Assembly (NCBI GenBank): GCA_041650495.1 | Contig: JBAZLB010000008.1 | Coordinates: forward strand, 4,218 to 68,217 | Reading direction: 5' to 3' | DNA from: Candidatus Omnitrophota bacterium | GTDB taxonomy: Bacteria; Omnitrophota; Gorgyraeia; Gygaellales; Profunditerraquicolaceae | DNA length: 64,000 bases | In this document: one piece after another, positions 14,137 to 51,669 of the stretch | Numbering within the stretch: the first letter of the stretch is position 1 | Layout: every line of letters begins with the position of its first letter | The notes under the pieces: model-generated | Told to the model about the DNA's origin: nothing | Database searches by the model: none | The model's input: the letters and a program-made list of their open reading frames with translations, nothing else | Made by a program: the position numbers and the translations under genes

Positions 14137-14528
14137 AGAAGCCTTTTTGTTGCATCTTTTTATTTTTTTTCCTGTTAACAGGCTGCCAGGCGCAAAATCC
14201 ATATCTGGATAAAACAAAGGAAGAAGCGGAGATATATTACTGGGACTTCGGGAAAGTAAAGACCGGGGTTATCCTGTCGCATGATTTCATCGTCAGGAAC
14301 AACTCGCAACACGTAATGCACATCAAGGAGATTACTACTTCCTGCGGTTGTGCTGTTCCTGAAATAGCCAAGAAGGTCCTTTCGCCAGGCGAAAGTACAT
14401 CTATGGCGGTGAATTTTAATACCGCAGGATATACCGGCGAGAGTAAACAGTACGTCTATGTGAACACCGACAGCCCGGATAATCCGATTTTACGTTTTAC
14501 AATCAGGGCAGAGATGTCGAAGGACTAA
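14133..14528 (+). CDS. DUF1573-family lipoprotein.
   Basis: The lipobox is 'LLTGC'. 'TSCGCAVPE' is the CGC motif typical of DUF1573. Its start overlaps the upstream gene. Confidence 0.6.
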   Translation: MKKPFCCIFLFFFLLTGCQAQNPYLDKTKEEAEIYYWDFGKVKTGVILSHDFIVRNNSQHVMHIKEITTSCGCAVPEIAKKVLSPGESTSMAVNFNTAGYTGESKQYVYVNTDSPDNPILRFTIRAEMSKD

Positions 14529-14770: not shown

Positions 14771-14957
14771 TATACCCCGTTAGCTAAGCGCTGCGTGGAT
14801 CGTGTATCCCTTGCCTAAACGCTCGAAAATTACTTTCGCTATGCTCAGTAATTTTCTTCGCAGGCTTCGGGATAATTCGCAGACGCCCCTTTACAGGGGC
14901 TACAACTTACGTCGGAGATGGATAAAATAATCGCTCCGTAAGTTGTCTGCTCATTAC
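14771..14957 (+). repeat. Structured intergenic repeat, copy A2, lying in tandem with A1. It is the archetype of about 187 nt and ends 18 nt before the htpX ATG.
   Basis: Its last roughly 100 nt are identical to A1. It has three hairpins: 'GAAAATTACT..AGTAATTTTC', 'GCCCCTTTACAGGGGC' and 'ACAACTTACG..CGTAAGTTGT'. Confidence 0.8.
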
Positions 14958-14975
14958 ATTAAAGGAGGTAGAAGG

Positions 14976-15938
14976 ATGTTTTTTTTAAAACTGAGGATGT
15001 GGCTTTTGTTGGGGGCACTTTTTGGGATTATCTATGCCATAATGGTTATGGTCGGTTCTTACCTGGGGATTACGAATTTTTATTTCTACCTATTTTTATC
15101 TCTGGCCATGATTCTTGTCCAGTATCTTATCGGGCCTAAAATGGTAGAGTGGACCATGCGTGTCAGGTATGTGAGTAAACAGCAATACCCTCAACTGTTT
15201 AGCATGGTAGAAGAATTATCCGCTAAGGCAGGAATCCCTATGCCTAAAATAGGCATATCCGCTATTCAGTTGCCGAATGCCTTTGCTTTTGGCCGCACAC
15301 TTAAGGACGGACGGGTATGCGTTACCGAAGGGATACTGCGGTTATTAAACGAAGAAGAGCTAAGGGCGGTTTTGGGGCATGAGTTAAGCCATTTGAAGAA
15401 CCGGGATGTCCTGACTATAACCCTGCTTTCGGTCATACCCATGATTCTTTACCGCTTAGCCTGGCAGTTCTTATTTTACGGCCGCCGCAGGGATTCAGAA
15501 AGGGGAAATAATACCGCAATTATCGGCTTGCTGGCTTTTGTCTTCTATTTTATCACCAACCTGCTGGTCCTTTATGCCTCCCGGATACGGGAATATTTTG
15601 CCGATCGCGGCTCTGTACAGCTGGGGAATCATCCCTCCAGCCTTGCCTCCAGTTTATACAAACTGAGCCAGGCGTCAGCGCGGGTAACACCTGAGTCGTT
15701 AAAAGAGGTAGAGGGGGTAAAGGCGTTTTTTGTCAATAACCCTTCGCAGGCCCTGAATGAAATCAGGGAATTAAGGCAAATCGACCTGGATAAGAACGGC
15801 GTAATCGGAGCCTCGGAGTTGGAACGTCTAAAAAAAGGCAGGATAAAACTTAACTTAGGAGAAAGGTTGTTGGAACTTCTCAGCACTCATCCTAATATGC
15901 TTAAGCGCCTGATGCAGCTTTCCCAGTATCAAGACTGA
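14976..15938 (+). CDS. htpX: HtpX-type M48 zinc metalloprotease with a C-terminal EF-hand-like insertion.
   Basis: The active site is 'HELSHLKNRD' (HExxH), N-terminal TM helices are predicted, and the RBS is 'AAAGGAGGT'. The track ORF starts on TTG at 14943, inside the repeat. Confidence 0.8.
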   Translation: MFFLKLRMWLLLGALFGIIYAIMVMVGSYLGITNFYFYLFLSLAMILVQYLIGPKMVEWTMRVRYVSKQQYPQLFSMVEELSAKAGIPMPKIGISAIQLPNAFAFGRTLKDGRVCVTEGILRLLNEEELRAVLGHELSHLKNRDVLTITLLSVIPMILYRLAWQFLFYGRRRDSERGNNTAIIGLLAFVFYFITNLLVLYASRIREYFADRGSVQLGNHPSSLASSLYKLSQASARVTPESLKEVEGVKAFFVNNPSQALNEIRELRQIDLDKNGVIGASELERLKKGRIKLNLGERLLELLSTHPNMLKRLMQLSQYQD

Positions 15939-16097: not shown

Positions 16098-17540
16098 ATG
16101 GAACTAAACGAGATTATCGCACAGAGAAGGGCGAAATTAGACGCCTTGAAAGCCAAGGGCATCCTTGTTTATCCCAAGGCCCTGGCCGGCCGTAAGGATA
16201 TAGGGCCTGCATTAAAGGACTTTCGGGAGGGGGAACGCTTTGTTTTTGCCGGCAGGATTATGGCCAGGCGTATGCACGGTAAGGTCGTCTTTATGGATTT
16301 ACGCGATGCCACCGGTAAGGTCCAGCTTTATATCAAAGAGGATATTGTCGGCAAGGATTATTTTTCCTTAATGGATAGCCTTGATATAGCTGATATTATT
16401 ACTGCGGAGGGCGAGCTTTTTAAGACGCATACAGGTGAGCCTTCGGTAAAAGTGGAAAAGATCACCCTTCTTTCTAAGGCGCTTCGGCCTTTGCCTGAGA
16501 AGTGGCACGGCCTTAAGGATGTAGAATTGCGTTACCGGCAGCGTTATCTGGATTTGCTGGCCAACGAAGAAGTCAGGCAGGTGTTTTTAGCGCGCTCCCG
16601 GGTTATCCGGGCAATCAGGAGTTTTCTTGAAGAAAGAGGGTTTCAGGAGGTGGAAACCCCGATGATGCATGACATTGCCGGAGGCGCCAGCGGCAGGCCT
16701 TTTTGCACCCATCATAATGAATATGATATGGGCCTGTATTTAAGGATTGCCCCCGAGCTTTATCTGAAACGCCTGCTCGTCGGCGGAATGGACAAGGTCT
16801 ATGAGATAAACCGCAGTTTCCGCAATGAAGGCGTATCCACCCGGCATAACCCGGAATTTACCATGCTGGAGGTGTACTCGGCTTATGCCGATTTTAAGGA
16901 TATGATGGAGTTGTGCCAGGATTTAATTATCTCGGTAAGCAGGGTAGTCAAGGGCGGGATGAACTTTTCTTATCAGGGCAAAGAAATAAACCTCAAGGCC
17001 CCCTGGCAGGTCTCTTCTTTTTCCGGTATGGTCAAGGAAAAGTTTGGCATTGAGCCGCAGGATGAGGTTGAAACAATGCTTAAGAAACTGCAGCATAAAG
17101 GTTACGCCCTGGATAAAAAAAGGCTAAGCCGCTCCCAGGTAAATAAGATCATAGAGGATGTGCTTGAGCAGGGTATGCAAATGGACCCGGTTTTTGTGGC
17201 TGATTATTTTACCAGCCTTTGCCCTTTGGCTAAAACCAGTCCTGATAATCCTTTGATCTCCGAACGTTTTGAACTGTATGTGGCAGGCCTGGAAGTAGGC
17301 AATGCCTACTCCGAGTTAAACGACCCCGCAGAACAGAGGCAGCGTTTTCAGGAGGAGATCAAGGAGCTGGATGCCGATGAAAAGAAGGCAGTCGATGAAG
17401 ATTATGTCCAGGCCCTGGAGCACGGGATGCCTCCGGCCGGGGGATTGGGTATAGGGATAGACAGGCTGGTGATGCTGCTTACAGACCAGCCTTCAATAAG
17501 GGATGTAATTCTTTTTCCGCTGCTTAGGCCGCAGAAATAA
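16098..17540 (+). CDS. lysS: Lysyl-tRNA synthetase (class II).
   Basis: A full-length class IIb aaRS, with the N-terminal OB fold and motifs 1-3 ('FRNEG', 'GGLGIGIDRLVMLL'). Confidence 0.95.
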   Translation: MELNEIIAQRRAKLDALKAKGILVYPKALAGRKDIGPALKDFREGERFVFAGRIMARRMHGKVVFMDLRDATGKVQLYIKEDIVGKDYFSLMDSLDIADIITAEGELFKTHTGEPSVKVEKITLLSKALRPLPEKWHGLKDVELRYRQRYLDLLANEEVRQVFLARSRVIRAIRSFLEERGFQEVETPMMHDIAGGASGRPFCTHHNEYDMGLYLRIAPELYLKRLLVGGMDKVYEINRSFRNEGVSTRHNPEFTMLEVYSAYADFKDMMELCQDLIISVSRVVKGGMNFSYQGKEINLKAPWQVSSFSGMVKEKFGIEPQDEVETMLKKLQHKGYALDKKRLSRSQVNKIIEDVLEQGMQMDPVFVADYFTSLCPLAKTSPDNPLISERFELYVAGLEVGNAYSELNDPAEQRQRFQEEIKELDADEKKAVDEDYVQALEHGMPPAGGLGIGIDRLVMLLTDQPSIRDVILFPLLRPQK

Positions 17541-18730
17541 TGGGTGTAGAGTTTTTTATCAGCCGGCGTTATTTATTCACCAAGAGGAAAGAAAAATTTA
17601 TTTCTCTTATTTCTGTTATTACCATCGCCGGGGTAGCTATAGGGGTGGCTGCCCTGATGGTAGTTATCGGCGTAATGAGCGGTTTTGATAAAGACCTGAA
17701 AGAAAAAATAGTAGGCAATTATTCCCATCTTACTGTTGCCAGCTATAAGGCTATAGAAGACAGCCGTTACCCTGAGCTGGCCGAGAAGATTTACGGCAAT
17801 AAACATGTGGTGGGGGTCAGTCCTTACCTGCAGGGCCAGGTGTTGGCAATGCAGGATAATAGATTTTTTGCCGTTTCCTTAAAAGGGATTTCCCCTAAGG
17901 AAGAGGTGCGGGTAAGCAAGATCAAGGAGTGCCTGACCAGGGGCAGTATTGAATCCCTGGATGCCTCAGCTATCATTATCGGCAAGGAATTAGCAGCGTA
18001 TCTGGGCCTTGATGTTGGTTCTTCCATGGCCGTATATTCGCCGCAGGGAAAACAGTTTGTTTTAAGGGTTGTCGGTATTTTTAACACCGGGATGTATGAA
18101 TATGATATGAACCTGGTATTTACCGGATTAAAGACCGCCCAGGATATCTTAGGCATGCCTGGACAAATAAGCTCTATAGGCATCAAACTGGATAATCTTG
18201 ATTCTGCGGACAGGGTAAGAGGGGAATTGGCTTCTGTCCTGGGAGTTGATTTTAGCCTGAAGACATGGTCAGAAATAAACCGGAATTTCTTTGCCGCATT
18301 GAAACTTGAAAAATTGACTATGTTTATTATCCTTACCCTGATTATACTGGTAGCTTCTTTTAATATTGCCAGCACCCTTATTGTTATGGTGGTAGAGAAG
18401 ACCAAGGATATAGGGATATTGAAGGCCATCGGCATGACTTGCGGGAGTATACGCCGTATTTTTATCTATGAAGGGCTGATTATAGGGGGGCTGGGGATCC
18501 TTCTTGGCGGCGCAGGCGGGGGACTGCTTTGTTTTCTGCTTAAGAAATACCAGTTTATAAAGCTGCCCCAGGATATATATTACATTGACCGTCTTCCCGT
18601 CTCCATTGTTTTATGGCCGGATATTGTTTTAATTCTTTTCTCTGCCCTTGTGGTTACCTTGATCTCAACCGTTTATCCTGCGATCAAGGCCGCCGGTTTA
18701 AAACCGGTAGAGGCGCTTAGGTATGAATAG
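17540..18730 (+). CDS. lolE: Lipoprotein-releasing ABC transporter permease (LolC/LolE, FtsX/MacB family).
   Basis: It has an N-terminal TM helix, a periplasmic domain and a C-terminal FtsX-like domain of three TM helices. It lies adjacent to the lolD ATPase. Confidence 0.75.
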   Translation: MGVEFFISRRYLFTKRKEKFISLISVITIAGVAIGVAALMVVIGVMSGFDKDLKEKIVGNYSHLTVASYKAIEDSRYPELAEKIYGNKHVVGVSPYLQGQVLAMQDNRFFAVSLKGISPKEEVRVSKIKECLTRGSIESLDASAIIIGKELAAYLGLDVGSSMAVYSPQGKQFVLRVVGIFNTGMYEYDMNLVFTGLKTAQDILGMPGQISSIGIKLDNLDSADRVRGELASVLGVDFSLKTWSEINRNFFAALKLEKLTMFIILTLIILVASFNIASTLIVMVVEKTKDIGILKAIGMTCGSIRRIFIYEGLIIGGLGILLGGAGGGLLCFLLKKYQFIKLPQDIYYIDRLPVSIVLWPDIVLILFSALVVTLISTVYPAIKAAGLKPVEALRYE

Positions 18731-18755
18731 CCTTGCTGTTAAATGAAAGTTGGGG

Positions 18756-19430
18756 ATGTTAGAAGCCCGGAATATACATAAGGTTTACTATAACGGCAAT
18801 AAGCAGCTTGAGGTATTAAAAGGTGTTAATTTAAAGATAGCCGAAGGAGAGCTTGTTGCGGTGGTAGGGCCTTCCGGAGCGGGTAAGTCCACGCTGCTGC
18901 ACATACTCGGCGGCCTGGATGAGCCGAGTGCAGGAGAGGTAGTCCTGGAAAGGGAAAATATTTATACCTTAAGCGATAACGGACTATCCGGGATACGTAG
19001 TAAAAAAGTCGGTTTTATTTTCCAGTCATATCATCTTTTAGCGGAATTTACCGTGCTTGAGAATGTAGTTATGCCTGCCCTGGTAAGATGCCCGGCAGCA
19101 GCTTCTTATTCTCAGATTGAAAAAGAGGGCAGGGGTCTTATTGCAAAGGTGGGGTTAACCGAGAGGATGGGGCATTTTCCTACGCAGCTTTCAGGGGGCG
19201 AGCAGCAGCGGGTGGCGATTGCGCGTGCCTTGATCAATAAGCCGAAGGTCCTTTTATGCGATGAGCCTACGGGTAACCTTGATTCTTACAACGGTAAAGA
19301 GGTGATTTCTCTGATTAAGAGGATAAGCTCAGAGAGCAATATGGCGGTGGTGCTGGTGACGCACAACCTGGAATTGGCTGGAGATTTCAAGCGTATATAT
19401 CATTTAAGCGACGGGGTATTTTGCTCCTAG
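18756..19430 (+). CDS. lolD: ABC transporter ATP-binding protein LolD.
   Basis: Walker A is 'GPSGAGKST', the signature is '[15 protein letters not shown]' and Walker B is '[11 protein letters not shown]'. Confidence 0.8.
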
Positions 19431-19478: not shown

Positions 19479-20357
19479 ATGATGAAAATATATATCAACG
19501 GTAAATTCTACGAAAAGGAAGAGGCTAAGATATCCGTTTTTGACCACGGACTTTTATACGGTGACGGGGTATTTGAGGGCATACGTTCTTATAGCTGCCT
19601 GGTTTTTAAACTCAAGGAGCATATTGAGCGTTTGTATGAATCCGCGCATTCGATCATGATAAATATCCCCTTGACCAAAGAGGAGATGACCAGGGCGGTC
19701 ATCCGCACGCTTAAAGAAAACAAGCTCAGGGACGCATATATCCGTTTAATAGTGACCCGCGGCGAGGGCGACCTGGGTCTTGACCCCCGTAGATGCGAAG
19801 GTAAGTCTACGGTTATTATCATCGCCGACCGCATATCACTTTATCCTGATAAATTCTACAAGAAAGGCCTTGAGATTATTACTGTGCCTACAGTCAGGAA
19901 TCTTCCTGAGGCGCTTAATCCTCAGATAAAGTCGTTGAACTACCTGAATAATATCCTGGCTAAGATTGAGGCGGTGAATTTAGGTTATGACGAGGCAATT
20001 ATGTTGGATTCCCTGGGTTATGTTGCGGAATGCACCGGGGACAATATTTTTATTGTCGAGCGCGCGGGGCTTTATACCCCTCCGCAGTGCATGGGGACAT
20101 TAAGGGGCATTACGCGCGATACGGTCCTTGAGATTGCGGCGAAAAACAAAATCGGTGTGCATGAGCATGTGCTTACCCGCCATGAACTTTACATTTCGGA
20201 TGAATGTTTTCTTACCGGGACAGCGGCAGAGATTATTCCTGTGGTGAAGGTTGACGGCAGGCTTATCGGCACAGGTAAACCCGGGAAGCTTACCCTTAGT
20301 TTGATGAAGAAATTTAAGGAACTCACCCGTAAAGAGGGCTCAAGGTATGCTTTGTAA
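19479..20357 (+). CDS. ilvE: Class IV aminotransferase (branched-chain amino acid / D-amino-acid aminotransferase family).
   Basis: A 292-aa fold-type IV PLP enzyme with 'FDHGLLYGDGVFEG'. The RBS is 'AAGGAGGT'. Confidence 0.7.
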   Translation: MMKIYINGKFYEKEEAKISVFDHGLLYGDGVFEGIRSYSCLVFKLKEHIERLYESAHSIMINIPLTKEEMTRAVIRTLKENKLRDAYIRLIVTRGEGDLGLDPRRCEGKSTVIIIADRISLYPDKFYKKGLEIITVPTVRNLPEALNPQIKSLNYLNNILAKIEAVNLGYDEAIMLDSLGYVAECTGDNIFIVERAGLYTPPQCMGTLRGITRDTVLEIAAKNKIGVHEHVLTRHELYISDECFLTGTAAEIIPVVKVDGRLIGTGKPGKLTLSLMKKFKELTRKEGSRYAL

Positions 20358-20895
20358 TATTTGCGGCAAAAAACCAGCGACAGTGCATCTTACTGAAATC
20401 GTGGATGACCAGATGACGGAATTGCACTTGTGCGAAGAGTGCGCGCATCAGAAGAGCGCTCAGATGGAGCAGCAGTTTGGGTTAAGCGACCTTTTGGCGG
20501 GTCTGGCTGAATTTGAAAAGCCCAAGAAAGAAGCGGAGTCTATCCTGCTTAAGTGCCCTAACTGCGGTTTTACCTATGCGGAATTCCAGAAGATAGGCAG
20601 GCTTGGCTGCAGCGAATGCTACGGGGCATTTAAAGGTTATCTCCTGCCGCTTTTAAAGCGTATCCACGGCTCGAATATGCATGTAGGTAAGATTCCGCTT
20701 TCATCCGGCAAGATGCCCAAGAGAGAAAAGGCCGCAGCCGTAACTTCCGATGAATTTGACCTGCAGGAAATGCGCCGCAGGCTTCAGGCGGCCATTAGTG
20801 CCGAGGCATTTGAGGAGGCGGCCAAGATACGCGACCAGATAAAAGAAATGGAAAAAGGGCAGACGCAAGGTAGAGATACCAAGGAGGGTAAATGA
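20347..20895 (+). CDS. mcsA: McsA-like protein arginine kinase activator (zinc fingers plus a UVR motif).
   Basis: It has CxxC pairs ('CNICGKK', 'CEEC', 'CPNCG', 'CSEC') and the UVR motif 'AISAEAFEEAAKIRDQIKEME'. It sits immediately upstream of mcsB-clpC. Confidence 0.7.
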   Translation: MLCNICGKKPATVHLTEIVDDQMTELHLCEECAHQKSAQMEQQFGLSDLLAGLAEFEKPKKEAESILLKCPNCGFTYAEFQKIGRLGCSECYGAFKGYLLPLLKRIHGSNMHVGKIPLSSGKMPKREKAAAVTSDEFDLQEMRRRLQAAISAEAFEEAAKIRDQIKEMEKGQTQGRDTKEGK

Positions 20896-21950
20896 AGCTA
20901 AACGACCTCCTGAAACATACAAGCGAATGGCTCAAAGGCACGGGCCCTAATTCCGATATCGTGATCTCCAGCCGCATCCGCCTGGCCAGGAATCTGGATA
21001 AGCTTCCCTTTCCGCACCTGGCTAATAAAAAGCAGGGTGAGAACGTATTGAATGCGGTATTGGAGGCGGCAGGTGGGGCGAGTTACTTAAAGAAGGCCAC
21101 GACCTTCAGGCTTATGGAATTGGACAATGTAGATAAGCAGTTTCTGGTCGAACGCCACCTGATGTCTTTAGAGCATGCCCAGCATCCGGAGAATAAGGCC
21201 TTGATCATCGATGACGAAGAGATCGTTTCCATTATGATCAATGAAGAGGACCATATACGCATGCAGGTAATGCAGTCGGGTTTTAACGTATTTGAGGCAT
21301 GGAATATCATTAATAATATAGACGATGCCCTGGCTAAAGAACTGCGTTTGGCCTTTCGTGCGGATTTAGGGTATCTTACCGCCTGTCCGACTAACGTAGG
21401 CACGGGCATGCGCGGTTCGGTGATGCTGCATCTTCCGGCACTGGTGATGGCCGGGCAGATTAACCGGGTATTGGCGGCAATCGCTAAATTGAGTTTTACT
21501 ACGCGCGGCCTCTGCGGTGAAGGAACACAGGCAAGCGGTAATTTCTTTCAGATATCCAACCAGGTTTCACTGGGAAACAGCGAGGAAGATATTATTGAAG
21601 GCATCAACGGCCTTATCCGGCAGATTATTGAACAGGAGAACCAGGCGCGCAAGGTACTTTTTTCTCAGAATAAGGCTATGCTGGAGGACAGGATTAACCG
21701 CAGTTTTGGCATCTTAAAGAGCGCGCGTATTATTTCCAGCCAAGAGACAATAGAGCTGTTATCTATGGTCAGGCTGGGGGTGGACCTGGGCGTGTTAAAT
21801 AACCTGGAGCGCAGCACCGTCAATGAACTCTTTATCATTACCCAGCCGGCCCATTTGCAGAAGATAAAGAAAGGCAGGCTCTCTTCTCAGGAAAGGGATA
21901 TTGAGAGGGCGCAGCTTATCAGGAATAAATTAATAAACAGTCAGAATTAA
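20892..21950 (+). CDS. mcsB: Protein arginine kinase McsB (ATP:guanido phosphotransferase family).
   Basis: It carries the phosphagen-kinase active-site motif '[18 protein letters not shown]'. Confidence 0.85.
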
Positions 21951-21964
21951 TTCAAGGAGGGACA

Positions 21965-24376
21965 ATGTTCAACCGGTTTACGGAGAGGGCAAGGAAGGTG
22001 ATTATACTGGCTAAAGAAGAGGCCAGGCGTTTTAATCATGATTATATTGGTACCGAACATATACTGCTGGGCTTAATCCGTGAAGGGGAAGGGGTGGCGG
22101 CTACTGTCTTGCAGAAGGTGGGGGTATCGTTAGAGAAGATACGCCTTGAGATCGAGAAATTAGTCCAGCCGGGACCGGCTACCCAGATTATCGGAGATAT
22201 ACCTTTTACCCCGCGGGCAAAAAAGGCCTTAGAGCTTGCTGCCGAAGAGGCCAGGTCTTTGGGTCATAACTACATCGGCACAGAGCACCTTTTATTGGGC
22301 CTTATCCGGGAAGGGGAAGGCATGGCTTCACAGGTCCTGTTGAATCTGGGGTTGGATTTGACTACGGTCAGGAATGAAGTGATGGAGTTGCTGGGTTCAG
22401 CACTTCCCGGATCAACCCAGTCTGTGGCAAAGACAAAGACCCCTGCGCTGGATGCCTTCGGCAGGGACCTGACTGCCTTAGCCAAGGAGAACAAACTTGA
22501 CCCGGTGATTAACCGGCGCAATGAGATTGACCGGGTGATACAGATATTAAGCCGCCGCACCAAAAATAACCCCGTTTTGCTGGGGGAGGCAGGCGTAGGA
22601 AAGACTGCTATAGTAGAAGGCCTGGCCCAGGCTATCGTAAACGGCAATGTCCCGGAAATACTGCGTAACCGCCGCATTATTGTTTTGGATTTAGCCTTGA
22701 TGGTTGCCGGCACAAAATACCGCGGTCAGTTTGAAGAGAGGATTAAGGCCATAATGGAGGAAATAAAGCGTTCGCAGGACGTCATTATTTTTATCGATGA
22801 ACTGCATACCCTGGTAGGGGCAGGCGCTGCAGAGGGGGCAATAGACGCCTCTAATATTTTAAAGCCCGCACTTTCCCGCGGTGAGATCCAGTGTATAGGC
22901 GCAACCACCCTGGATGAATACAGGAAACATGTTGAAAAGGACGCGGCCTTAGAACGCAGGTTCCAGACTATTATGGTCGAGCCACCTTCGGTGGAACAGG
23001 CAGTGGATATACTAAAAGGGCTGCGTGATAAATACGAGGCGCATCACCGCGTTACCTTTAAAGATGATGCCCTGCTCTCAGCGGTAAGATTATCAGACCG
23101 TTATATTTCAGGCAGATTCCTGCCGGATAAGGCCATTGACCTGATTGACGAGGCAGGCTCCCGCGCCAGGTTGAATGTGCTGGTAGTACCTGCGGATATA
23201 AAGAAACTGGAGGAGAAGGTAGAGTCTTTGAAGAAAGAGAAGGAGTCTTACATCAAAAGCCAGGATTTCGAGAAGGCGGCATCATTAAGGGACCAGGAGA
23301 GGCTGACCCGGCAGGAATTAGAGCGTTTAAATAAGGAATGGAGCCAGGCCAAGGATAAGATGCGGCCGGAGGTGGGCGAAGAAGAGATTGCCAATATAGT
23401 TTCGCAATGGACAGGTATACCTATTTTCAGGTTAGAGGAGAAGGAATCCGAAAAATTGATGAAGATAGAAGAAGAACTGCATAAGCGCGTGGTCGGCCAG
23501 GATGAGCCCATCTCTGCTATTGCCCATGCCGTCAGGCGTTCCCGCGCCGGCATTAAGGACCCGCGCCGGCCCATAGGTTCTTTTATTTTCTTAGGGCCTA
23601 CCGGCGTAGGTAAGACCCTGCTTGCCAGGGCGCTGGCAGAATTTATGTTCGGAGACGAAGATGCGCTTATACAGCTGGATATGTCGGAGTATATGGAGAA
23701 ATTCAATGTCTCCCGGCTTATCGGAGCTCCTCCCGGATACGTGGGTTATGAAGAGGGGGGCCAGCTTACCGAAAGAGTAAGGCGCAGGCCTTATGCGGTT
23801 ATACTCCTGGATGAAATAGAAAAGGCCCATCCTGATGTCTTTAATCTGCTCCTTCAGGTATTTGAAGAGGGGCACCTTACGGACAGTTTTGGCAGGAAAG
23901 TGGATTTCAGGAATACCGTGATGCTGATGACCTCTAATGTGGGGGCTGAGACTATCCGCAAGACCGGCTCCCTGGGTTTTAAAAGCGATAAGGAAGAGGT
24001 TACCTATCAGGGGATGAAAGAAAAACTCCTGGAGGAGGTAAAGCATACCTTTAAGCCCGAGTTTTTAAACCGCATAGACGATATTATTGTCTTCAGGTCA
24101 TTAAGCAGGGAAGACCTGCACCATATAATTGATATTGAGATAGGTTTTGTTGCTGCCAGGCTCAAAGAGCAGAATATAAGTCTTGAGGTAACCCCTGAGG
24201 CAAAAGAATTCCTGATTGAAAAGGGGTTTGACCCTGTCTTTGGCGCCAGGCCCTTAAAAAGGACCATACAGCGTTTTATGGAGGACCCTTTAGCCTCGAA
24301 TATTATCTCTAAAAAGTTTAAAGACGGTTCTGTTGTCAAGGTTGCCTGTAAAAATGCGGAACTGATTTTCGAATAA
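21965..24376 (+). CDS. clpC: ATP-dependent Clp protease ATP-binding subunit ClpC.
   Basis: It has duplicated Clp-N repeats and two AAA+ modules with Walker A motifs 'GEAGVGKT' and 'GPTGVGKT'. The middle domain holds the UVR motif. Confidence 0.9.
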
Positions 24377-25158
24377 TGGAAAAATTATTTATTATCTTAG
24401 GTAAAAAGGTAACATCCTTTCTGTATTTTTCCGGAGGCCTGGCTAACCTGGTCTCCCAGACTTTTTATTGGACGTTTACCGCGCCCATTAAAAAAGAGCG
24501 CGTTTTTATCCAGGCAAAGAAGGCAGGCGTGGATAGCCTGCCTATAGTCTCCCTGATTACCTTCTTTATCGGCGTAATCATGGCCTTTCAGACCGCCTAT
24601 CTGATGCAGCGTCTGGGTTCGGAGATGTATATCGCCAGTATTGTCGCTCTTTCCCTGGTCAGAGAATTAGGCCCGGTTATCACAGCCCTTGTAGTTGCCG
24701 GCCGTGTGGGCGCTGCTATTACCGCCGAAATAGGCTCTATGCAGGTTACCGAACAGGTAGATGCCCTGCAGACCCTGGCGACTAATCCCGTAAAATATTT
24801 AGTTGTCCCCAGGTTTATTGCCTTGAGCATAATGCTGCCCATTCTTACCCTCTACGGGGATATTATCGGTATATTCGGCGGATACCTTATATGCGTTTAT
24901 AAACTGGGCATTACCTCCAGTATGTACCTGCATATCGCCTTTGATGCCCTGTTATTCAAGGATGTATTTACCGGCCTGGCTAAGACCATATTCTTCGGGA
25001 TGATTATCTCTTTTGTGAGTTGTTATGAGGGTTTTAACGTAGAGGGCGGCGCAGAAGGTGTGGGTAAGGCTACTACCCGTTCTGTGGTGACCACCTTTAT
25101 CATGATCATCGCTGCAGACTGTTTCTTTACTGCCCTGTTTTATTTTATATTCCCTTAG
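24376..25158 (+). CDS. mlaE: Phospholipid ABC transporter permease MlaE.
   Basis: It belongs to the MlaE/TTG2B family and has five TM segments. Confidence 0.85.
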   Translation: MEKLFIILGKKVTSFLYFSGGLANLVSQTFYWTFTAPIKKERVFIQAKKAGVDSLPIVSLITFFIGVIMAFQTAYLMQRLGSEMYIASIVALSLVRELGPVITALVVAGRVGAAITAEIGSMQVTEQVDALQTLATNPVKYLVVPRFIALSIMLPILTLYGDIIGIFGGYLICVYKLGITSSMYLHIAFDALLFKDVFTGLAKTIFFGMIISFVSCYEGFNVEGGAEGVGKATTRSVVTTFIMIIAADCFFTALFYFIFP

Positions 25159-25186
25159 GGCTAAACGTATTTAAGATCCGGTCAAC

Positions 25187-25957
25187 ATGATAGAAATAAT
25201 AGGGTTAAATAAATCTTTTAACGAGAGAAAAGTCTTAAACAACCTCAGCCTGAAAGTCGATACAGGTTCGACCTGCGTCATTATCGGGCGTTCCGGATGC
25301 GGTAAAAGCGTTCTCTTAAAACATATCGTGGGTATATTAAGCCCGGATAGCGGCCAGGTTATCGTTGACGGCCAGGATGTCACGCAGTTAAAGGAAAGCG
25401 AAATGGATAAAGTAAGGATGAGGGTGGGTATGGTCTTTCAGGGCGGGGCCCTGTTTGATTCCATGAATGTCGGAGAGAATGTGGGTTTTGGCTTGATCGA
25501 GCATGACCATATAGAAAGGAAGCAATTACTGGAAAGGATAGAAGAGGCGCTTTGCATGGTAGGCCTTTGCGGGATAGAGAACCTTATGCCTTCGGAATTA
25601 AGCGGCGGCATGAAAAAACGCGTATCCCTTGCCAGAGCGATATGCATTAAGCCGGATATCATACTTTATGATGAGCCCACTACCGGAGTCGATCCCATTA
25701 CCGCAGACAGTATAAATGAACTTATCCGCAGCCTGCACGATAAAATAAAGGTCACCTCTATAGTAGTTACGCATGATATGAAGAGCGCTTATCGCGTGGC
25801 AGACCGGATTGCCATGCTTTACCAGGGCAGGATTATTGCAGAAGGCACAGCCGAGGAGATCCAGGCGACAGAGCATCCGGTGGTGCATCAGTTTATAAAC
25901 GGATTAGCCAAAGGTCCGATAACCGAAACAGTGGAACATCTGAAGAACAGGCAGTAG
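25187..25957 (+). CDS. mlaF: Phospholipid ABC transporter ATPase MlaF.
   Basis: Walker A is 'GRSGCGKS', the signature is 'LSGGMKKRVSLARA' and Walker B is 'ILYDEPTTGVD'. Confidence 0.85.
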   Translation: MIEIIGLNKSFNERKVLNNLSLKVDTGSTCVIIGRSGCGKSVLLKHIVGILSPDSGQVIVDGQDVTQLKESEMDKVRMRVGMVFQGGALFDSMNVGENVGFGLIEHDHIERKQLLERIEEALCMVGLCGIENLMPSELSGGMKKRVSLARAICIKPDIILYDEPTTGVDPITADSINELIRSLHDKIKVTSIVVTHDMKSAYRVADRIAMLYQGRIIAEGTAEEIQATEHPVVHQFINGLAKGPITETVEHLKNRQ

Positions 25958-25987
25958 TTGTTTACCTTCTAAATCAGGAGGCAGGAG

Positions 25988-26620
25988 ATGATATTCGGAA
26001 AATCAAGATTGGAATTCAAGGTGGGTATCTTTGTTTTTATCGGGTTGGTAATATTGATGACCTTTGTCCTGCTTATCGGAGATTTCAGGGTCTGGGCCTT
26101 AGGTTATCGGATGAATTTTTCATTTAATTTTGCCAACGGCGTCAAGGTAGGCGCTCCGGTAAGGTTTTGCGGGGTAGATGTGGGTGAAGTAAAAGGCATT
26201 GATTTTGTATATGTGCCGGAAGAATATAAGACCAAGGTTATTATAAGGGGATGGCTGAGAAAGGAAATAAAGATCCCCAGCGATTCCCGGATCTGGATAA
26301 ATACGCTGGGGCTTTTAGGTGAAAAATACGTAGAGATTATTCCCGGCAGCGATTACGCGCACTGCTTTGAGGCTAACCAGGTTATTGTCGGCAATGACCC
26401 GGTGGCCATGCATGAGGTTACCCGGCTGGCTAAAAATATTGCTGATAACCTTGACGCGATCATCACCAAAGTTAAAAATAAGGAAGGCACTATCGGTAAG
26501 CTTCTTTACGATGATGCGCTCTATAATGAATTGGAAGCATTTATTTCCGATATCAGGCGTAATCCATGGAAACTTTTCTTCAAGACCAAAGAGAAGAAGG
26601 CCCCTCCTAAGAAGCAATGA
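25988..26620 (+). CDS. mlaD: MCE-domain protein MlaD.
   Basis: It has an N-terminal TM anchor followed by an MCE domain, and it follows mlaEF. Confidence 0.8.
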   Translation: MIFGKSRLEFKVGIFVFIGLVILMTFVLLIGDFRVWALGYRMNFSFNFANGVKVGAPVRFCGVDVGEVKGIDFVYVPEEYKTKVIIRGWLRKEIKIPSDSRIWINTLGLLGEKYVEIIPGSDYAHCFEANQVIVGNDPVAMHEVTRLAKNIADNLDAIITKVKNKEGTIGKLLYDDALYNELEAFISDIRRNPWKLFFKTKEKKAPPKKQ

Positions 26621-46728: not shown

Positions 46729-46737
46729 CGAATGTAT

Positions 46738-46766: not shown

Positions 46767-46775
46767 AATCATACT

Positions 46776-47336
46776 ATGCCAAAAGAAGAATTGAAGGAAC
46801 TGAAAATAAAGTTACTCGCCCTTTTAAAGAAAGATGCCCTGAAAAAAGGGGCATTCTTGTTATCTTCAGGAAAGATGAGCAATTACTATCTTGACGGCAG
46901 GATAATCACCCTTACCCCCGAGGGGGCATATCTAGTGGCCAGTATTATTCTGGAACTGGTTAAAGACGAGAAAATAGAGGCTATCGGGGGCCCTACCCTG
47001 GGCGCAGACCCTATAGTCGGTTCAGTCGCCGTATTAAGCCATATTAAGAATATTCCCCTTAAGACTTTCATCGTCCGTAAGGACGCCAAGGGGCATGGCA
47101 CTAAACAGCAGATTGAAGGCCCGCCTTTAGCCAGGGGCAGCAGGGTTTTCCTGGTGGATGATGTGGCTACTACCGGCAAGGCCCTGTTGGAGGCAAAGCA
47201 GGCATTAGATAATGCCGGTATAGCCGTAGAGAGGGCCATAGTGATTGTGGACAGAAAAGAAGGGGCAAGGGAAAATCTGTCTGCGGCAGGGCTTAGGCTG
47301 GAATCAATATTTGAAATAGAGGAACTGGGGGTTTAA
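46776..47336 (+). CDS. pyrE: Orotate phosphoribosyltransferase.
   Basis: It has the PRPP-binding motif 'VFLVDDVATTGKA'. Confidence 0.9.
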   Translation: MPKEELKELKIKLLALLKKDALKKGAFLLSSGKMSNYYLDGRIITLTPEGAYLVASIILELVKDEKIEAIGGPTLGADPIVGSVAVLSHIKNIPLKTFIVRKDAKGHGTKQQIEGPPLARGSRVFLVDDVATTGKALLEAKQALDNAGIAVERAIVIVDRKEGARENLSAAGLRLESIFEIEELGV

Positions 47337-47360
47337 AAAATAGAAAGGAAGGAACGGTTT

Positions 47361-47882
47361 ATGAGAAAGGTCATTCTCGCCTATGTTTTTCTGTTTTTGT
47401 GCGTATCGATAGCCGCGGCATCTACGGATGAGACCCGCAAGAAAATCGTTGAGCTAAAAAATCAGATCATTGATTTACAAAACCAGGGGGAATTAGGCAT
47501 TACAGACTTAGTAGCTTGTTCCAAGGTTTTGAATTTAGGCACCTATGTGCCTTTACCGGAAGCAAAGGTAAAAAAAGGGGGCACCTTCTATACCTATTTT
47601 GAGCCGCTTAATTTTTTCACTAATAAAAGAGAAGGGATGTATGAAATATGGCTTTCCGCGGATATGTTTATTTTGAACGAGGCCCAAGAGGTGCTCATGT
47701 CCAAGGAAAACGCCACAGATATGCACCTGAATACCTATTCTCCTGTTTTTGACCTTTATTTTAAATATACCCTGGATATGACGGATGCGCCTGTCGGTAA
47801 ATATGTATTAAAGGTGGTGATAAACGATAAGCTAAGAGAGACAAGCGCTGAGAAGACCCTTCCTTTTGAAGTTGTCGAATAA
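47361..47882 (+). CDS. Secreted hypothetical protein with a signal peptide.
   Basis: It begins 'MRKVILAYVFLFLCVSIAAAS' and the RBS is 'GGAAGGAA'. Confidence 0.5.
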   Translation: MRKVILAYVFLFLCVSIAAASTDETRKKIVELKNQIIDLQNQGELGITDLVACSKVLNLGTYVPLPEAKVKKGGTFYTYFEPLNFFTNKREGMYEIWLSADMFILNEAQEVLMSKENATDMHLNTYSPVFDLYFKYTLDMTDAPVGKYVLKVVINDKLRETSAEKTLPFEVVE

Positions 47883-47919
47883 AGGGCAGCTTGTTATAAA
47901 CATAACCTTCCGGGATTAA

Positions 47920-49164
47920 GTGGATATAAAAAAGATAGTAGTGGTGGGTGCCGGTCCTGCCGGGATGATGGCGGCCATCCGCTCGGGGGTCCTTGGACAG
48001 GAGGTAACCCTTATAGAGAAAAACAACCACCCCGGCCTTAAGCTTCTTTTAAGCGGGAAGGGCCGCTGCAATCTTACCAATGCCTGCGATTTAAACTCAT
48101 TCCTTTCGCATTTCGCCCATAACGGCCAATTCCTGCGCGATGCATTTAAAAAGTTCTTTAATTCCCAAATGATGCATTTTTTCCAGGAAAGGGGTCTGAA
48201 GCTGGAGGTGGAAAGGCAGATGAGGGTTTTCCCCTGCAGCAATAAGTCAGCCAGTATCCTGAAAATATTAGAAAATGAACTTAGGAAAAATAAGGTCAGG
48301 GTTCTTTACGGTATGCCCTTGGATAAAGTCTTGGCTCAGGAGGATAAAATAAAGGCGGTGCTGTCTAAGGGCGCGAAGGTGATTCCTGCTGATAGGGTTA
48401 TTTTGGCAACAGGAGGGCTGTCTTATCCTTCGACCGGCTCAACCGGGGAAGGGATCACTATAGCCGGAAAATTAGGCCATCGTATCGTCCCTTTGCTCCC
48501 CGGGCTTATCCCCCTGGTAACAAAGCAGAAATACGGCAGGATATTAAAAGGCCTGGTGTTAAAGAATATACGCCTTAATTTTTCGGATGGAGAGAGACGG
48601 ATAACTTCGGATGTAGGGGAGTTGTTATTTACGGATTTTGGTATTTCCGGCCCCCTGGTATTGTCTTTAAGCGCAAGGGTAGTGGATTGGCTAAAAGAGG
48701 GAAAGAGCGTTTACGCAGAGATAGACCTGAAGCCGGGTTTATCATTAGGGCAGCTGGAGGCCAGGATATTACGGGAGTTCAAGGAGAACCCGAAAAAGAA
48801 CTTAAAAAACACCCTAAAGAGTCTTCTGCCTTTAAGCATGGCGGGTGTCTTTTTGGAAGCAGCCGGAATCAATCCCTTTAAAAAGGTAAGCCATGTGGTT
48901 AAAGGAGAACGGCAGCGGATAGTCTGCTTATTGAAAAGGATGCGTTTGGATATAGAGGGCAGCCGTCCTATTGAGGAGGCTATGGTAAGCCGGGGCGGGG
49001 TTTCCTTGAAGGATATAAACCCGCGCACCATGGAGTCCCGTTTGATCAGGGGTCTGTATTTTGCCGGAGAGATGATAGATGTAGACGCGGATACCGGAGG
49101 TTTTAATCTCCAGGCGGCATTCTCTACCGGATATCTGGCAGGGGAAAGTGCTGCCTTAAGTTAA
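47920..49164 (+). CDS. HI0933/YhiN-family FAD-dependent flavoprotein (BaiN-like).
   Basis: It has 'IVVVGAGPAGMMAAI' and the HI0933 family architecture. It starts on GTG. Confidence 0.8.
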   Translation: MDIKKIVVVGAGPAGMMAAIRSGVLGQEVTLIEKNNHPGLKLLLSGKGRCNLTNACDLNSFLSHFAHNGQFLRDAFKKFFNSQMMHFFQERGLKLEVERQMRVFPCSNKSASILKILENELRKNKVRVLYGMPLDKVLAQEDKIKAVLSKGAKVIPADRVILATGGLSYPSTGSTGEGITIAGKLGHRIVPLLPGLIPLVTKQKYGRILKGLVLKNIRLNFSDGERRITSDVGELLFTDFGISGPLVLSLSARVVDWLKEGKSVYAEIDLKPGLSLGQLEARILREFKENPKKNLKNTLKSLLPLSMAGVFLEAAGINPFKKVSHVVKGERQRIVCLLKRMRLDIEGSRPIEEAMVSRGGVSLKDINPRTMESRLIRGLYFAGEMIDVDADTGGFNLQAAFSTGYLAGESAALS

Positions 49165-49183
49165 AAAACAACGGATCAGCAAA

Positions 49184-50533
49184 ATGAAGAAGGCAAAGAT
49201 ATATTTGGCGTCTTATTCTAAAGCGCGCAGGAAACTATTCAGCATCTTTGGCCTTAAATTCATAGTCCTGCCCAGCCGGATCCCTGAATTAGATAAGCCG
49301 ATCCAGCGGTCTTTTCCTGCGTTAGTCAAGGCAAATGCCCTGGCTAAGGCCAGGTGTGTTTCTGAGAGAGTAAAGGACGGGATAATCATTGCCGCGGATA
49401 CTATTACTGTGCAGGATAATAAGGTGTTCGGAAAGCCCGCTGATTTAAAGGAGGCTCACCGTATGCTTAAGGCCCTTTCGCGTAAACCTCAATGGCTCTA
49501 TACGGGTATAGCGGTTATCGATAAAAACAAAGGCAAAATAAAAGTCGGATTTGAGAAGACCAGGGTTTACATGGACAGGTTGACGGATAAGGAGATCAGG
49601 CAATACTTCTTGCGGGTTTCTCCGCTGGATAAGGCAGGGGGTTTTGATATCCAGGGCAAAGGCGCGTTCTTTATCCGCAGGGTCGAGGGGTGTTTTTATA
49701 ATGTCGTGGGTTTACCTTTAAGGAGGCTATATCGCATGCTTAAGGTATTAGGGGTTGAGGTCTTTGGCCTTGTTTTGTGTTTTTTTCTTGCGGGCTGCTC
49801 GACGGAATATAATCTGGCTACTAAGCAGGAGGAGGTATTTTATTATAATTACAGCACGGAAAAAGAAGTGCAGATGGGGCTTTCTATAGCCCGGCAGGTA
49901 GAAAAACAGTATAAACTGGTCAGTGACCCGCTTATCCAAAAACGCGTAGAAGATATAGGGGAAAAGATAGTAGCGGTATGCGACCGTAAAGATATAGATT
50001 ATTCCTTCAGGGTCCTGGATGACGATGAAGTAAATGCCGCGTCCCTGCCCGGAGGGATCATCTATGTTAATAAGGGGCTGATCGATAAAGTCGATAATGA
50101 TGATGAGCTGGCAGGGGTCTTAGCCCATGAAGTAGGGCATATAGTGGCGCGGCACAGTATAAAGAAGCTGCAGGCGGTTTCCGGCTACTCTATTCTCAGG
50201 ATACTGGTGGCCGCCGCTCCCCAGTCAGGGGAAGCAGGCGCTGCGGCAGACGCAGCCTTTACTGAAATAATCTTAGGTTATTCCCGCGAAGATGAGTTAC
50301 TGGCTGATCAGCTTTCTGCCAGGTATGCTAAGGCAGCCGGCTATAACCCCCAGGCCATGCTTACCTTTCTTAAAAAACTCCAGGATATTAACCGCCGTAA
50401 ACCCCTTGCCCCTAAATCCTATTACAAGACGCACCCCTATGTACCGGATAGGGTAAGGGTAGTAAAGCAGGAGTTGGGTCAAAAGATAGATTTTGACGAT
50501 TATATCAACACCCAGGATAAACCTCATGAATAA
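49184..50533 (+). CDS. maf: Maf nucleotide pyrophosphatase domain (aa 1 to about 190) fused in-frame to a lipobox-bearing M48 zinc metallopeptidase domain.
   Basis: The Maf part has 'IYLASYSKARRKLF', 'IIIAADTI' and 'NVVGLPL'. It continues without a stop into 'MLKVLGVEVFGLVLCFFLAGCS' (signal peptide with lipobox) and the M48 domain with 'LAHEVGHIVARH'. Confidence 0.6.
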   Translation: MKKAKIYLASYSKARRKLFSIFGLKFIVLPSRIPELDKPIQRSFPALVKANALAKARCVSERVKDGIIIAADTITVQDNKVFGKPADLKEAHRMLKALSRKPQWLYTGIAVIDKNKGKIKVGFEKTRVYMDRLTDKEIRQYFLRVSPLDKAGGFDIQGKGAFFIRRVEGCFYNVVGLPLRRLYRMLKVLGVEVFGLVLCFFLAGCSTEYNLATKQEEVFYYNYSTEKEVQMGLSIARQVEKQYKLVSDPLIQKRVEDIGEKIVAVCDRKDIDYSFRVLDDDEVNAASLPGGIIYVNKGLIDKVDNDDELAGVLAHEVGHIVARHSIKKLQAVSGYSILRILVAAAPQSGEAGAAADAAFTEIILGYSREDELLADQLSARYAKAAGYNPQAMLTFLKKLQDINRRKPLAPKSYYKTHPYVPDRVRVVKQELGQKIDFDDYINTQDKPHE

Positions 50534-51620
50534 AAGGCTGTATCTGTCGGCTGTTTTCATCCTGACAGGGCTTATTTATTCAACGGTATCAGCCGGTAAT
50601 GTTCTCACTGCAAATAAACAGATGAAGAAAGAGATGCCCGGACTTGAAGATAAAACTCAGAGCCGCTTTGGGGTCCTGGAATTCCTGCATTGGAACCATC
50701 CCTGGAATAATTATAAATACCCTTCCGAAGAATCCCTTGTTAAGGCCGTCACCTTAATGAAAGAGGCAGGGGTAGGCTGGGTGAGGATGGATTTTCTCTG
50801 GCAGGATATTGAGCCGGAAAAAGGAAAGTTCGTTTTTGACAGATACGATAAAATAGTGGATTTATTAAGCCGTTATAATATAAAGATACTCGGGTTGCTT
50901 AATTACAGCACGGATTGGGCAGCTTCAGATGGCAAATGGAATTCACCGCCCGAAGACAACAGCCTTTTTGTTAATTATGCCTCTTTAGTGATCAGCCGTT
51001 ATAAAGATAAGGTGAAATACTGGGAAGTGTGGAATGAACCGGATTCCGCCGTATATTGGGTGAGGCAGGATGGGCTTAAGAGCTATTGTGTCTTACTTAA
51101 AGAGGTGTATATTGCCGCTAAAAGAATAGACCCGGATTGTGCGGTCCTAAACGGAGGCCTGGCTAACGGTATTGCCAGCGTAAATAAACTTTATGATAAC
51201 GGTGCGCAGGAATATTTTGATATTCTAAATATCCACATATTTGAATCTCCGTTATCGCCCGGGGCGTTGGCGAGAGTGAAGGCTTATGCTAGACTTACCC
51301 GTAAAGTGATGTCGCGCAATAAAGATACTGACAAGAAGGTATGGATAACCGAGATAGGATGCCCGGGGATAAAGAAAGGCCTTTCGGCCAAGAACTGGTG
51401 GCTGGGAGATAATCCCGACGAAGAACAGCAGGCAAGATGGCTGGAGGAAGTATTCAAGGCATTATTAAAAGATAATGCAGCGGAGAAAGTCTTTTGGGCA
51501 TTTTTCAGGGATTGCCGGGGGCACTGGGATAACGGCATAGATTATTTCGGCCTGGTGCGCTGGGATTTCTCCAGGAAGCCGTCTTTTTTCACCTACCAAA
51601 CCTCCTCCCGTACTGAGTAA
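50526..51620 (+). CDS. Secreted clan GH-A glycoside hydrolase (GH5/GH39-like).
   Basis: It has a signal peptide. 'VWNEPD' supplies the acid/base Glu and 'WITEIG' the nucleophile Glu. Its start overlaps the previous stop as 'ATGAATAA'. Confidence 0.55.
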   Translation: MNKRLYLSAVFILTGLIYSTVSAGNVLTANKQMKKEMPGLEDKTQSRFGVLEFLHWNHPWNNYKYPSEESLVKAVTLMKEAGVGWVRMDFLWQDIEPEKGKFVFDRYDKIVDLLSRYNIKILGLLNYSTDWAASDGKWNSPPEDNSLFVNYASLVISRYKDKVKYWEVWNEPDSAVYWVRQDGLKSYCVLLKEVYIAAKRIDPDCAVLNGGLANGIASVNKLYDNGAQEYFDILNIHIFESPLSPGALARVKAYARLTRKVMSRNKDTDKKVWITEIGCPGIKKGLSAKNWWLGDNPDEEQQARWLEEVFKALLKDNAAEKVFWAFFRDCRGHWDNGIDYFGLVRWDFSRKPSFFTYQTSSRTE

Positions 51621-51669
51621 CATTTCTGACGGGAGGGTCGGGGTGGATAATATCCGTCAGTTTAAGAAG

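Follow-up and report, generated by a model that had tools for sequence, protein, structure and literature searches.

How can one protein chain hold both a cytoplasmic nucleotide pyrophosphatase and an exported protease? The question is raised by a gene of Candidatus Omnitrophota, at positions 49184..50533 of the 64,000-nucleotide stretch analysed here (the window), in which a Maf domain runs in frame into a lipobox and an M48 metalloprotease domain. We propose that neighbouring genes were fused into one, which would encode a precursor with an internal lipoprotein signal: the Maf half would stay in the cytoplasm, whereas the M48 half would be exported, lipidated and cleaved off. From the sequence evidence given below, we put the probability of this reading at about 0.62. 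The parts of the gene are the following.

49184..50533, plus strand: Maf::M48 precursor gene, 449 codons plus TAA, an uninterrupted open reading frame (ORF)
49184..49768, plus strand: Maf nucleotide pyrophosphatase domain (residues 1-195), with the helix and tail (ending in RRLYRMLKVLGVEVF) that form its natural C-terminus
49721..49744, plus strand: basic stretch at the end of Maf's C-terminal helix (R180 R181 L Y R184 M185 L K187), putatively doubling as n-region of the signal
49763..49795, plus strand: h-region and c-region of the putative internal signal sequence, V194-G204 (VFGLVLCFFLAG)
49787..49798, plus strand: lipobox L202-A203-G204-C205, with Cys205 (49796-49798) as predicted Lgt site and G204/C205 as predicted LspA cut
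49796..50530, plus strand: predicted mature M48 zinc-metalloprotease lipoprotein, C205-E449, with HEVGH at 50126-50140

The ORF runs without a stop codon through both domains, as the first-pass annotation of the window had read it, and the three peptides quoted there (NVVGLPLRRLYRML, MLKVLGVEVFGLVLCFFLAGCS and LAHEVGHIVARH) are all present. An identical protein (P0001) is encoded on an independent 90-kb contig record of ENA that covers this region of the window. The gene caller started P0001 at TTG 49205, but ATG 49184 fits better as the start, because the TTG would truncate the conserved KIYLAS strand (L8, A9 and S10 are at least 90% conserved). The Pfam profile for Maf (PF02545) matched residues 5-187 (E 7e-49, 166.5 bits for a cutoff of 27, profile positions 1-185 of 187). 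The profile for Peptidase_M48 (PF01435) matched residues 252-429 (E 3e-32, 112.3 bits for a cutoff of 20.3), which bears out the peptidase domain that had been noted after the lipobox.

Both domains were modelled confidently by AlphaFold (AF2), with a predicted local distance difference test score (pLDDT) of 80-96 in the Maf part (residues 1-195). The predicted template modelling score (pTM) of 0.56 is consistent with two domains that lack a fixed mutual orientation. At the junction of the model, the Maf helix (179-188) is followed by a break, by an 11-residue helix (192-202, pLDDT around 59) and then by β-strands from Cys205 on (205-210 and 215-220), which form part of the M48 fold. The sole long stretch of the M48 model with pLDDT below 50 (residues 335-359, window 50186..50260) is a poorly conserved loop, rich in Ala and Gly (AAAPQSGEAGAAADAAF), which connects two helices. 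On the minus strand within the gene there is no ORF above 87 amino acids and none with support. Promoter-like and terminator-like motifs inside the gene and at the junction were as frequent as in shuffled sequence, and Rfam gave zero matches in 46500-53000; we therefore rejected the idea that the junction holds a promoter of its own, a terminator or a structured RNA.

The fusion is widespread in the phylum. A search of 5.8 billion proteins returned 1853 matches, and we inspected the best 120 of these for their architecture. All 120 were 437-471 amino acids long, had both Pfam domains and were 67-100% identical to the query; they derive from NCBI, JGI, ENA and Logan assemblies, in part from contigs that are hundreds of kb long. 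Fused homologues were also found on contigs above 1 Mb. In total we gathered 247 distinct fused proteins of Candidatus Omnitrophota, around 435-470 amino acids long and 39-73% identical to the query per domain. An exhaustive scan of 1.84 billion representatives clustered at 50% identity found the full architecture in two clusters only, P0121 and P0124; the relatives of the deeper one (P0124, 41% identity) were all fused Omnitrophota proteins again. A scan of genome contigs with a single protein as query, which reaches close relatives only (20 loci), placed such relatives in 20 species-level GTDB genomes. Some fused genes carry other taxonomic labels: uncultured Planctomycetales for loci L003, L005 and L007-L009, and Candidatus Pacebacteria for L015 (PFLP01000026.1, 3.4 kb), whose junction is identical to that of an Omnitrophica locus (L006). 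These labels look like mislabelling, mis-binning or default labelling rather than occurrence outside the phylum.

Since the fused form is found down to 39-42% identity, the sequences indicate that the fusion is old. Across the 247 proteins the mean identity to the query was 63% for Maf, 66% for M48 and 38% for the h-region of the junction. Hence both halves are equally conserved within one chain, and this is almost certainly a genuine gene fusion conserved in Omnitrophota. Of the two explanations that the first-pass annotation offered, a genuine fusion of Maf, a membrane segment and a periplasmic M48 protease is thus the one that holds, with one amendment: the segment is hydrophobic, as it had said, but it is likelier to be a cleavable lipoprotein signal sequence than a permanent anchor.

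The Maf half has what the enzyme is expected to need. The NCBI model for maf (TIGR00172) scored 146 bits for a cutoff of 117.15, and the closest solved structures are Maf of Bacillus subtilis (1EX2) and YhdE of Escherichia coli (4P0E). The signature of the family, S-R-E-K-D-K, corresponds to S10, R13, E33, K52, D70 and K82 of YhdE (PMC3899018) and to S12, R15, E35, K55, D72 and K84 of the query. In 69 fused sequences, K55, D72 and K84 were invariant and S12, R15 and E35 at least 90% conserved. With its signature kept, the Maf half is predicted to be catalytically intact. The subfamilies differ at three positions, R-T-Q in YhdE and W-Q-E in YceF (PMC3899018). The query has A14-T73-Q157 there. 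It resembles YhdE in its full-length Maf fold, in the signature and in two of the three subfamily residues (Thr and Gln), but differs from both proteins at the first, which is Ala instead of Arg (YhdE) or an aromatic residue (YceF). Stand-alone Mafs of Omnitrophota, of around 192 amino acids, end in NVVGLPxAKLxxMLKKFGVxxL or MLKKFGVEVL directly before the stop codon, at the equivalent of F195 of the query. Hence, the window sequence up to F195 (RRLYRMLKVLGVEVF) still belongs to Maf.

The M48 half appears equally complete. The residues described for this family (PMC7950410) are all invariant in the family alignment: the zinc ligands H315, H319 and E371, the His-Pro plug H417-P418 and Arg423, together with E316 of the HEXXH motif. 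From these residues the protease is predicted to be catalytically intact. The closest solved structures are a stand-alone M48 protein (3C37, E 2e-39) and then the protease domain of BepA (6AIT/6SAR, 2e-24). The models for BepA and LoiP were both missed: the former (NF052400) matched at E 2e-36 over positions 42-251 of 483 with 125.8 bits for a cutoff of 570 and no TPR, the latter (NF052399) with 66.5 bits for a cutoff of 365. Like YcaL and LoiP (YggG) of E. coli and 3C37, the query has a single M48 catalytic domain of around 245 amino acids without TPR, a lipobox Cys ahead of it, and the HEXXH motif, Glu ligand and His-Pro plug (PMC7950410). Unlike in YcaL and LoiP, the lipobox is preceded by a cytoplasmic enzyme and is reached only at residue 205. 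BepA (YfgC), a periplasmic protease and chaperone of the BAM/LptD pathway, is the best-scoring characterised relative, and lptF and lptG are encoded nearby; yet BepA has a TPR domain, which is lacking here, and is soluble rather than a lipoprotein. By analogy with YcaL and LoiP, the M48 half is likely to act in envelope protein quality control.

How the two halves are joined is best seen by aligning each with its unfused relatives. Stand-alone M48 relatives (40-53% identity, 250-270 amino acids) align from residue 190-200 or so of the query, and the lipoprotein signal peptides with which they start share its GC(A/S/T)TEYN motif at their end (e.g., MQRLFILVALGFFLCGC-ATEYNLATG). The lipobox of the fused family aligns with this N-terminal lipobox. 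Taken with the natural end of Maf, this means that the C-terminus of Maf has been joined to the h-region and lipobox of the signal peptide of the protease. The junction is thus, by sequence, homologous to a lipoprotein signal peptide in which the basic Maf helix replaces the n-region. The “textbook” signal peptide of the earlier description stands as regards the hydrophobic core and the lipobox; its n-region (RRLYRMLK) and the following LGVEVF belong to the helix and tail of Maf.

The lipobox Cys is the constant point of the junction. Cys205 is invariant in all 247 fused proteins, and the residue before it is Gly in 244 and Ser in three. The core of the PROSITE lipobox pattern (PS51257), {DERK}(6)-[LIVMFWSTAG](2)-[LIVMFYSTAGCQ]-[AGS]-C, is matched by the query (GLVLCF-FL-A-G-C205) and fits at the junction of 219 of the 247 proteins, none of which has a second site. 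The positional part of the same rule wants the Cys around 15-35 residues from the N-terminus, with a Lys or Arg near the N-terminus, and the query fails it: its Cys is residue 205, and the basic residues ahead of the lipobox (R180, R181, R184 and K187) are part of the Maf helix. By the standard rule Maf::M48 is therefore no canonical lipoprotein precursor, yet it may well be processed like one. In the window protein, 12 uncharged residues (VFGLVLCFFLAG) precede Cys205. In the fused family the h-region is 10-23 residues long (median 16, with at least 20 in 33 of 241 proteins), against a median of 13 in stand-alone M48 lipoproteins.

From these features we infer the following course of events. 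Maf, which has no signal of its own, would stay in the cytoplasm, and the internal signal would be inserted through Sec with its N-terminal side in and its C-terminal side out, in keeping with positive charges before it and a net negative stretch after it. The M48 domain would be translocated across the membrane, Lgt would lipidate Cys205, and LspA would cut between G204 and C205. This would yield an ordinary mature M48 lipoprotein with Ser at position +2, possibly sorted by Lol and serving envelope protein quality control. Maf would remain behind at the membrane's inner face, carrying a hydrophobic tail of 10-23 residues, and what becomes of it there is speculation. The steps differ in probability. 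Export of the M48 domain through the internal signal is very probable given the homology of the junction; cleavage by LspA between Maf and M48 is favoured to a lesser degree, at somewhat better than even odds.

The same locus exists in split form in some relatives. In L030, maf (193 amino acids), the M48 lipoprotein (272 amino acids) and a DUF192 protein (149 amino acids) are separate genes. The ATG of the M48 gene overlaps the stop codon of maf (ATA TAT GAA TAA / ATG AAT AAA, an 8-nucleotide overlap), and the M48 protein has an n-region of its own (MNKDTTKQTRQASLRSEF...). The genes of locus L026 follow in this order too, with Maf and M48 fused. Among the stand-alone M48 lipoproteins, the two closest (P0128 and P0127) are encoded away from maf, and P0130 is that of the split locus L030. 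Orthologues uniformly encoding two proteins, which the first-pass annotation had named as the sign of an assembly error, are the opposite of what we found: split forms are the minority, and their stop and start codons overlap.

A further variant was found in L017 (5919-6726; JAGUUJ010000002.1, Omnitrophota DeMMO5_9), which matches the fused locus L028 (3001-4341) at 94-96% identity except that around 570 nucleotides of maf are replaced by around 40. Its product starts with MGLPL-LKFTILLFCLLLFGC, so that the h-region and lipobox of L028 now form an ordinary N-terminal signal peptide, and this stand-alone M48 lipoprotein (MGLPLLKFTILLFCLLLFGC...) directly follows the HI0933-like gene. Since the variant comes from a single 7-kb contig of a metagenome-assembled genome, it is possibly a population variant or an assembly problem.

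Omnitrophota also have a sister fusion, Maf::DUF192, of around 325-336 amino acids, found in at least 19 clusters (P0171, P0271-P0287 and P0301). Here too, both states occur. In L022 and L023, maf and the DUF192 gene are split with an ATGA overlap (L022, 5001-6043), and the DUF192 protein has a normal signal peptide for type I signal peptidase (SPase I; ...FARAQA|APPQVC). The gene caller missed this signal peptide in L022 and called the gene at 117 amino acids. The syntenic loci L024 (5001-5987) and L025 (892-1878) encode a fused protein of 328 amino acids (P0287). Nearly all Maf::DUF192 junctions keep a small-X-Ala or Ala-X-Ala motif for SPase I after a hydrophobic stretch, and two (P0171 and P0271) have a lipobox-like SGC in its place.

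On the sequence comparisons, the best reading is that Maf::M48 arose from adjacent genes, probably translationally coupled, in which the start codon of the second overlapped the stop codon of the first. In a crude neighbour-joining tree of Maf domains, fused and stand-alone Mafs are interleaved, which suggests repeated events of fusion and fission. The two seem to toggle easily, as would be expected if cleavage gives nearly the same mature products in both states. As in a polyprotein, an internal hydrophobic segment and a conserved signal-peptidase motif lie between modules that also exist as separate genes.

The export of M48 could also end without cleavage. Maf::M48 would then be a bitopic type II protein of the inner membrane, with Maf in the cytoplasm, the M48 domain tethered in the periplasm by a permanent anchor, the lipobox vestigial or lipidated and left uncut, and both enzymes coupled at one membrane site. 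We regard this as unlikely, even though such a protein would share its topology and domain order with the cleaved precursor. A plain anchor needs no invariant Gly/Ser-Cys, and this pair persists through 247 sequences that have diverged down to around 40% identity while the h-region drifts in sequence and length, which supports cleavage. The 12-residue h-region of the window protein and those of 35 other members are shorter than a typical bilayer-spanning helix. The sister Maf::DUF192 fusions keep their AXA cleavage motif, and the easy toggling between split and fused genes argues against obligatory physical coupling. In favour of the lipoprotein pathway, the window holds a second lipoprotein precursor, of the classic kind, and the LolCE-like and LolD-like genes described below.

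Several observations nevertheless weigh against the processed precursor. Our literature search gave no precedent for Lgt or LspA acting on a lipobox behind a folded domain of 190 amino acids, or for a cut by LspA 200 residues into a chain, which also speaks for a lasting anchor. Compared with stand-alone M48 lipoproteins, fused proteins have slightly longer h-regions; with at least 20 residues in the longest, this could be an adaptation toward such an anchor. Neither lgt nor lspA was seen in the 64-kb window of this genome, and the matches for LolCE and LolD fall below their NCBIfam equivalog cutoffs. Finally, the tree behind the repeated fusion and fission has short branches and no support values.

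A second alternative, also raised by the first-pass annotation, is that the protease is made from an internal start codon, with the long form arising only incidentally because maf had lost its stop codon. Translation from ATG 49736 behind an AGGAGG would give the precursor of an M48 lipoprotein, for which MLKVLGVEVFGLVLCFFLAGC would be usable as a signal peptide. Both sequence elements are where they had been reported (AGGAGG at 49721-49726, nine nucleotides upstream of the ATG at 49736-49738), and Shine-Dalgarno (SD) motifs precede around half of the real gene starts of this genome. The motif sought as an internal ribosome binding site is therefore present in the window, but it is not conserved in relatives. 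An SD core of at least four nucleotides is present in just four of the 19 distinct junctions, the full AGGAGG in the window alone, and the upstream synonymous codons vary freely among relatives. In the window it encodes Arg-Arg within TTA AGG AGG (Leu-Arg-Arg); AGG is the commonest Arg codon of the genome (33%), and AGGAGG occurs 48 times on the plus strand of the window.

The start codon fares no better. Met185 is a residue of the Maf helix that stand-alone Mafs, with nothing following them, conserve equally, and it is replaced by Ile or Val in eight of 121 fused proteins. A usable TTG is present in the L020 junction, but four of the 19 junctions (L002, L006/L015, L012 and L019) have no in-frame ATG, GTG or TTG able to give a signal peptide. 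In at least these lineages the protease can therefore reach the periplasm only within the full-length chain. The codon-level comparison of the 19 junctions and the conservation of the Met in stand-alone Mafs thus rule out a conserved internal ribosome binding site and start. The full-length protein is made regardless, as there is no stop codon, and internal initiation is therefore at most a local supplement and not the mechanism of the family. For an old fusion whose candidate start is a Met of the Maf helix, and which lacks a start in four of 19 junctions, we consider this explanation highly improbable; a minor supplementary product from ATG 49736 is possible in this genome, but is not required.

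It is a negligible prospect that the stop codon of maf, between what are truly two genes, was erased by a mutation of very recent date or is missing through an error of sequencing or assembly. Such fusions are rare a priori, and the split form is found in some relatives (L030), but the same fused frame in hundreds of independent NCBI, JGI, ENA and Logan assemblies, at 39-73% identity, rules it out, and in split relatives the genes are in different frames with an 8-nucleotide overlap and an M48 n-region of its own, which is not so here.

The surroundings of the fusion are those of a probable operon, which runs from pyrE through a hypothetical exported protein, an HI0933-like flavoprotein and Maf::M48 to a glycoside-hydrolase-like (GH-like) and a GalT-like gene.

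46776..47336, plus strand: pyrE (TIGR00336, 152.6 bits, cutoff 106.8)
47361..47882, plus strand: hypothetical exported protein gene
47920..49164, plus strand: HI0933-like flavoprotein gene (HI0933_like, E 2e-83)
50526..51620, plus strand: GH-like gene (weak Pfam matches to GH42, GH1 and GH10), whose ATG overlaps the stop codon of the fusion

The sole strong promoter-like pair lies ahead of pyrE (46624-46766), and the operon is divergent from ComF-like, lptG and lptF genes. A phosphoribosyltransferase gene directly precedes maf in L022 (4447-5004), L024 (4447-5004) and L026 (4405-4989), with an overlap of four nucleotides in the first two; in the window, two genes sit between pyrE and maf. The substrates of Maf include pyrimidine nucleotides (PMC3899018), and the neighbouring pyrE is possibly a link of Maf to pyrimidine metabolism. 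At the other end of the fusion, its stop codon and the ATG of the GH-like gene share eight nucleotides (50526..50533, ATGAATAA). The overlap string is the same as at the split maf/M48 junction of L030, and this is the kind of junction where a next in-frame fusion could arise.

Other genes of the window concern the envelope and its lipoproteins.

14124..14528, plus strand: DUF1573 protein with a classic N-terminal lipobox (MEDMKKPFCCIFLFFFLLTGC), just upstream of the next gene
14943..15938, plus strand: HtpX-type M48 peptidase (331 amino acids), a separate second M48
16098..17540: class II aminoacyl-tRNA synthetase gene (Pfam tRNA-synt_2), adjoining the LolCE-like gene
17540..19430, plus strand: LolCE-like permease (TIGR02212, 325 bits, cutoff 362) and LolD-like ATPase (262 bits, cutoff 308)

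The latter pair suggests lipoprotein release of the Lol type with a single permease gene. Further along the plus strand, 20347..24376 and 24376..26620 encode McsA/McsB-like proteins (a UVR motif protein and an ATP:guanido phosphotransferase) and then ClpC, a quality-control module based on arginine phosphorylation that is better known from Firmicutes. After ClpC come MlaE, an ABC ATPase and MlaD (MlaDEF). With the Lol-like genes, MlaDEF and the DUF1573 lipoprotein in the window, a diderm envelope with lipoprotein trafficking is plausible. A plus-strand ORF of 1083 amino acids at 746..3997 has EF-G domains starting only at around residue 395, and its N-terminal 390 or so residues give weak matches to coiled-coil or SMC-like proteins (E 7e-10). 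This is an EF-G with an N-terminal extension or else an upstream ORF that has been mis-joined to it.

Precursors that are split at internal signal sequences have been described in other systems. The FbcH precursor of cytochromes b and c1 of Bradyrhizobium japonicum is a polyprotein that signal peptidase splits at an internal signal sequence. It has in common with Maf::M48 an internal hydrophobic segment and a signal-peptidase motif between two functional proteins of one chain. Flavivirus polyproteins (e.g., PMC6756788) are a further example. Both differ from the present case in that the peptidase is of type I and the partners are membrane or secreted proteins. Maf::M48 starts with a soluble cytoplasmic enzyme, has a lipobox (SPase II) as its motif, and its cut is a prediction from sequence. 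The same distinction separates the sister fusions, with AXA (SPase I) in Maf::DUF192 and a lipobox (SPase II) in Maf::M48. Another parallel concerns what remains on the signal-peptide side of the LspA cut. The sex-pheromone peptides of enterococci derive from lipoprotein signal peptides, so that this side has a biological life of its own; there, an octapeptide is released outside the cell, whereas here it would be a whole enzyme of 200 amino acids left on the cytoplasmic side. Human ASMTL, in which Maf is fused to a methyltransferase, indicates that Maf tolerates C-terminal fusions, but the partner in Maf::M48 is exported and reached via a signal sequence rather than a second cytoplasmic domain.

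NCBI already names some homologues “Maf and M48 domain-containing protein”, and the architecture has thus been catalogued by automatic naming. We found no paper on the fusion or on the internal lipobox: our literature search returned nothing relevant on fusions of Maf or M48 in Omnitrophota, on internal lipoboxes or on bacterial polyproteins cut by signal peptidase, and in the Omnitrophota reference paper Maf appears only as MAFFT. As predictors and the PROSITE rule want the Cys near the N-terminus, such proteins are systematically mis-annotated, the name given in this case being simply “septum formation protein Maf”. For annotation, we recommend that the M48 half be treated as an exported lipoprotein protease and not as part of a cytoplasmic Maf. 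Nothing beyond co-expression indicates a functional link between the halves, and the fusion alone reveals no link of nucleotide house-cleaning to envelope proteolysis.

The two sister fusions raise the tentative idea, to which we give a little less than even odds, that Omnitrophota use signal peptidases as polyprotein processors, type II for M48 and type I (Ala-X-Ala) for DUF192. If so, every such Maf would be brought to the Sec translocon and remain at the membrane, bearing a hydrophobic tail, with its partner set free outside, and the tethering of Maf near envelope biogenesis (pyrE-maf-M48-DUF192 beside lptFG) might be a selected trait. The locus provides an example, documented by sequences, of overlapping neighbours that fuse and split again, and a signal peptidase would make the fused and split states nearly equivalent and thus functionally interchangeable. 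Should the proposed processing be right, lipoprotein and secretory signals of bacteria would work around 200 residues from the N-terminus, which the standard predictors exclude by rule, and the phylum would offer a natural demonstration of signal sequences functioning behind a folded enzyme.

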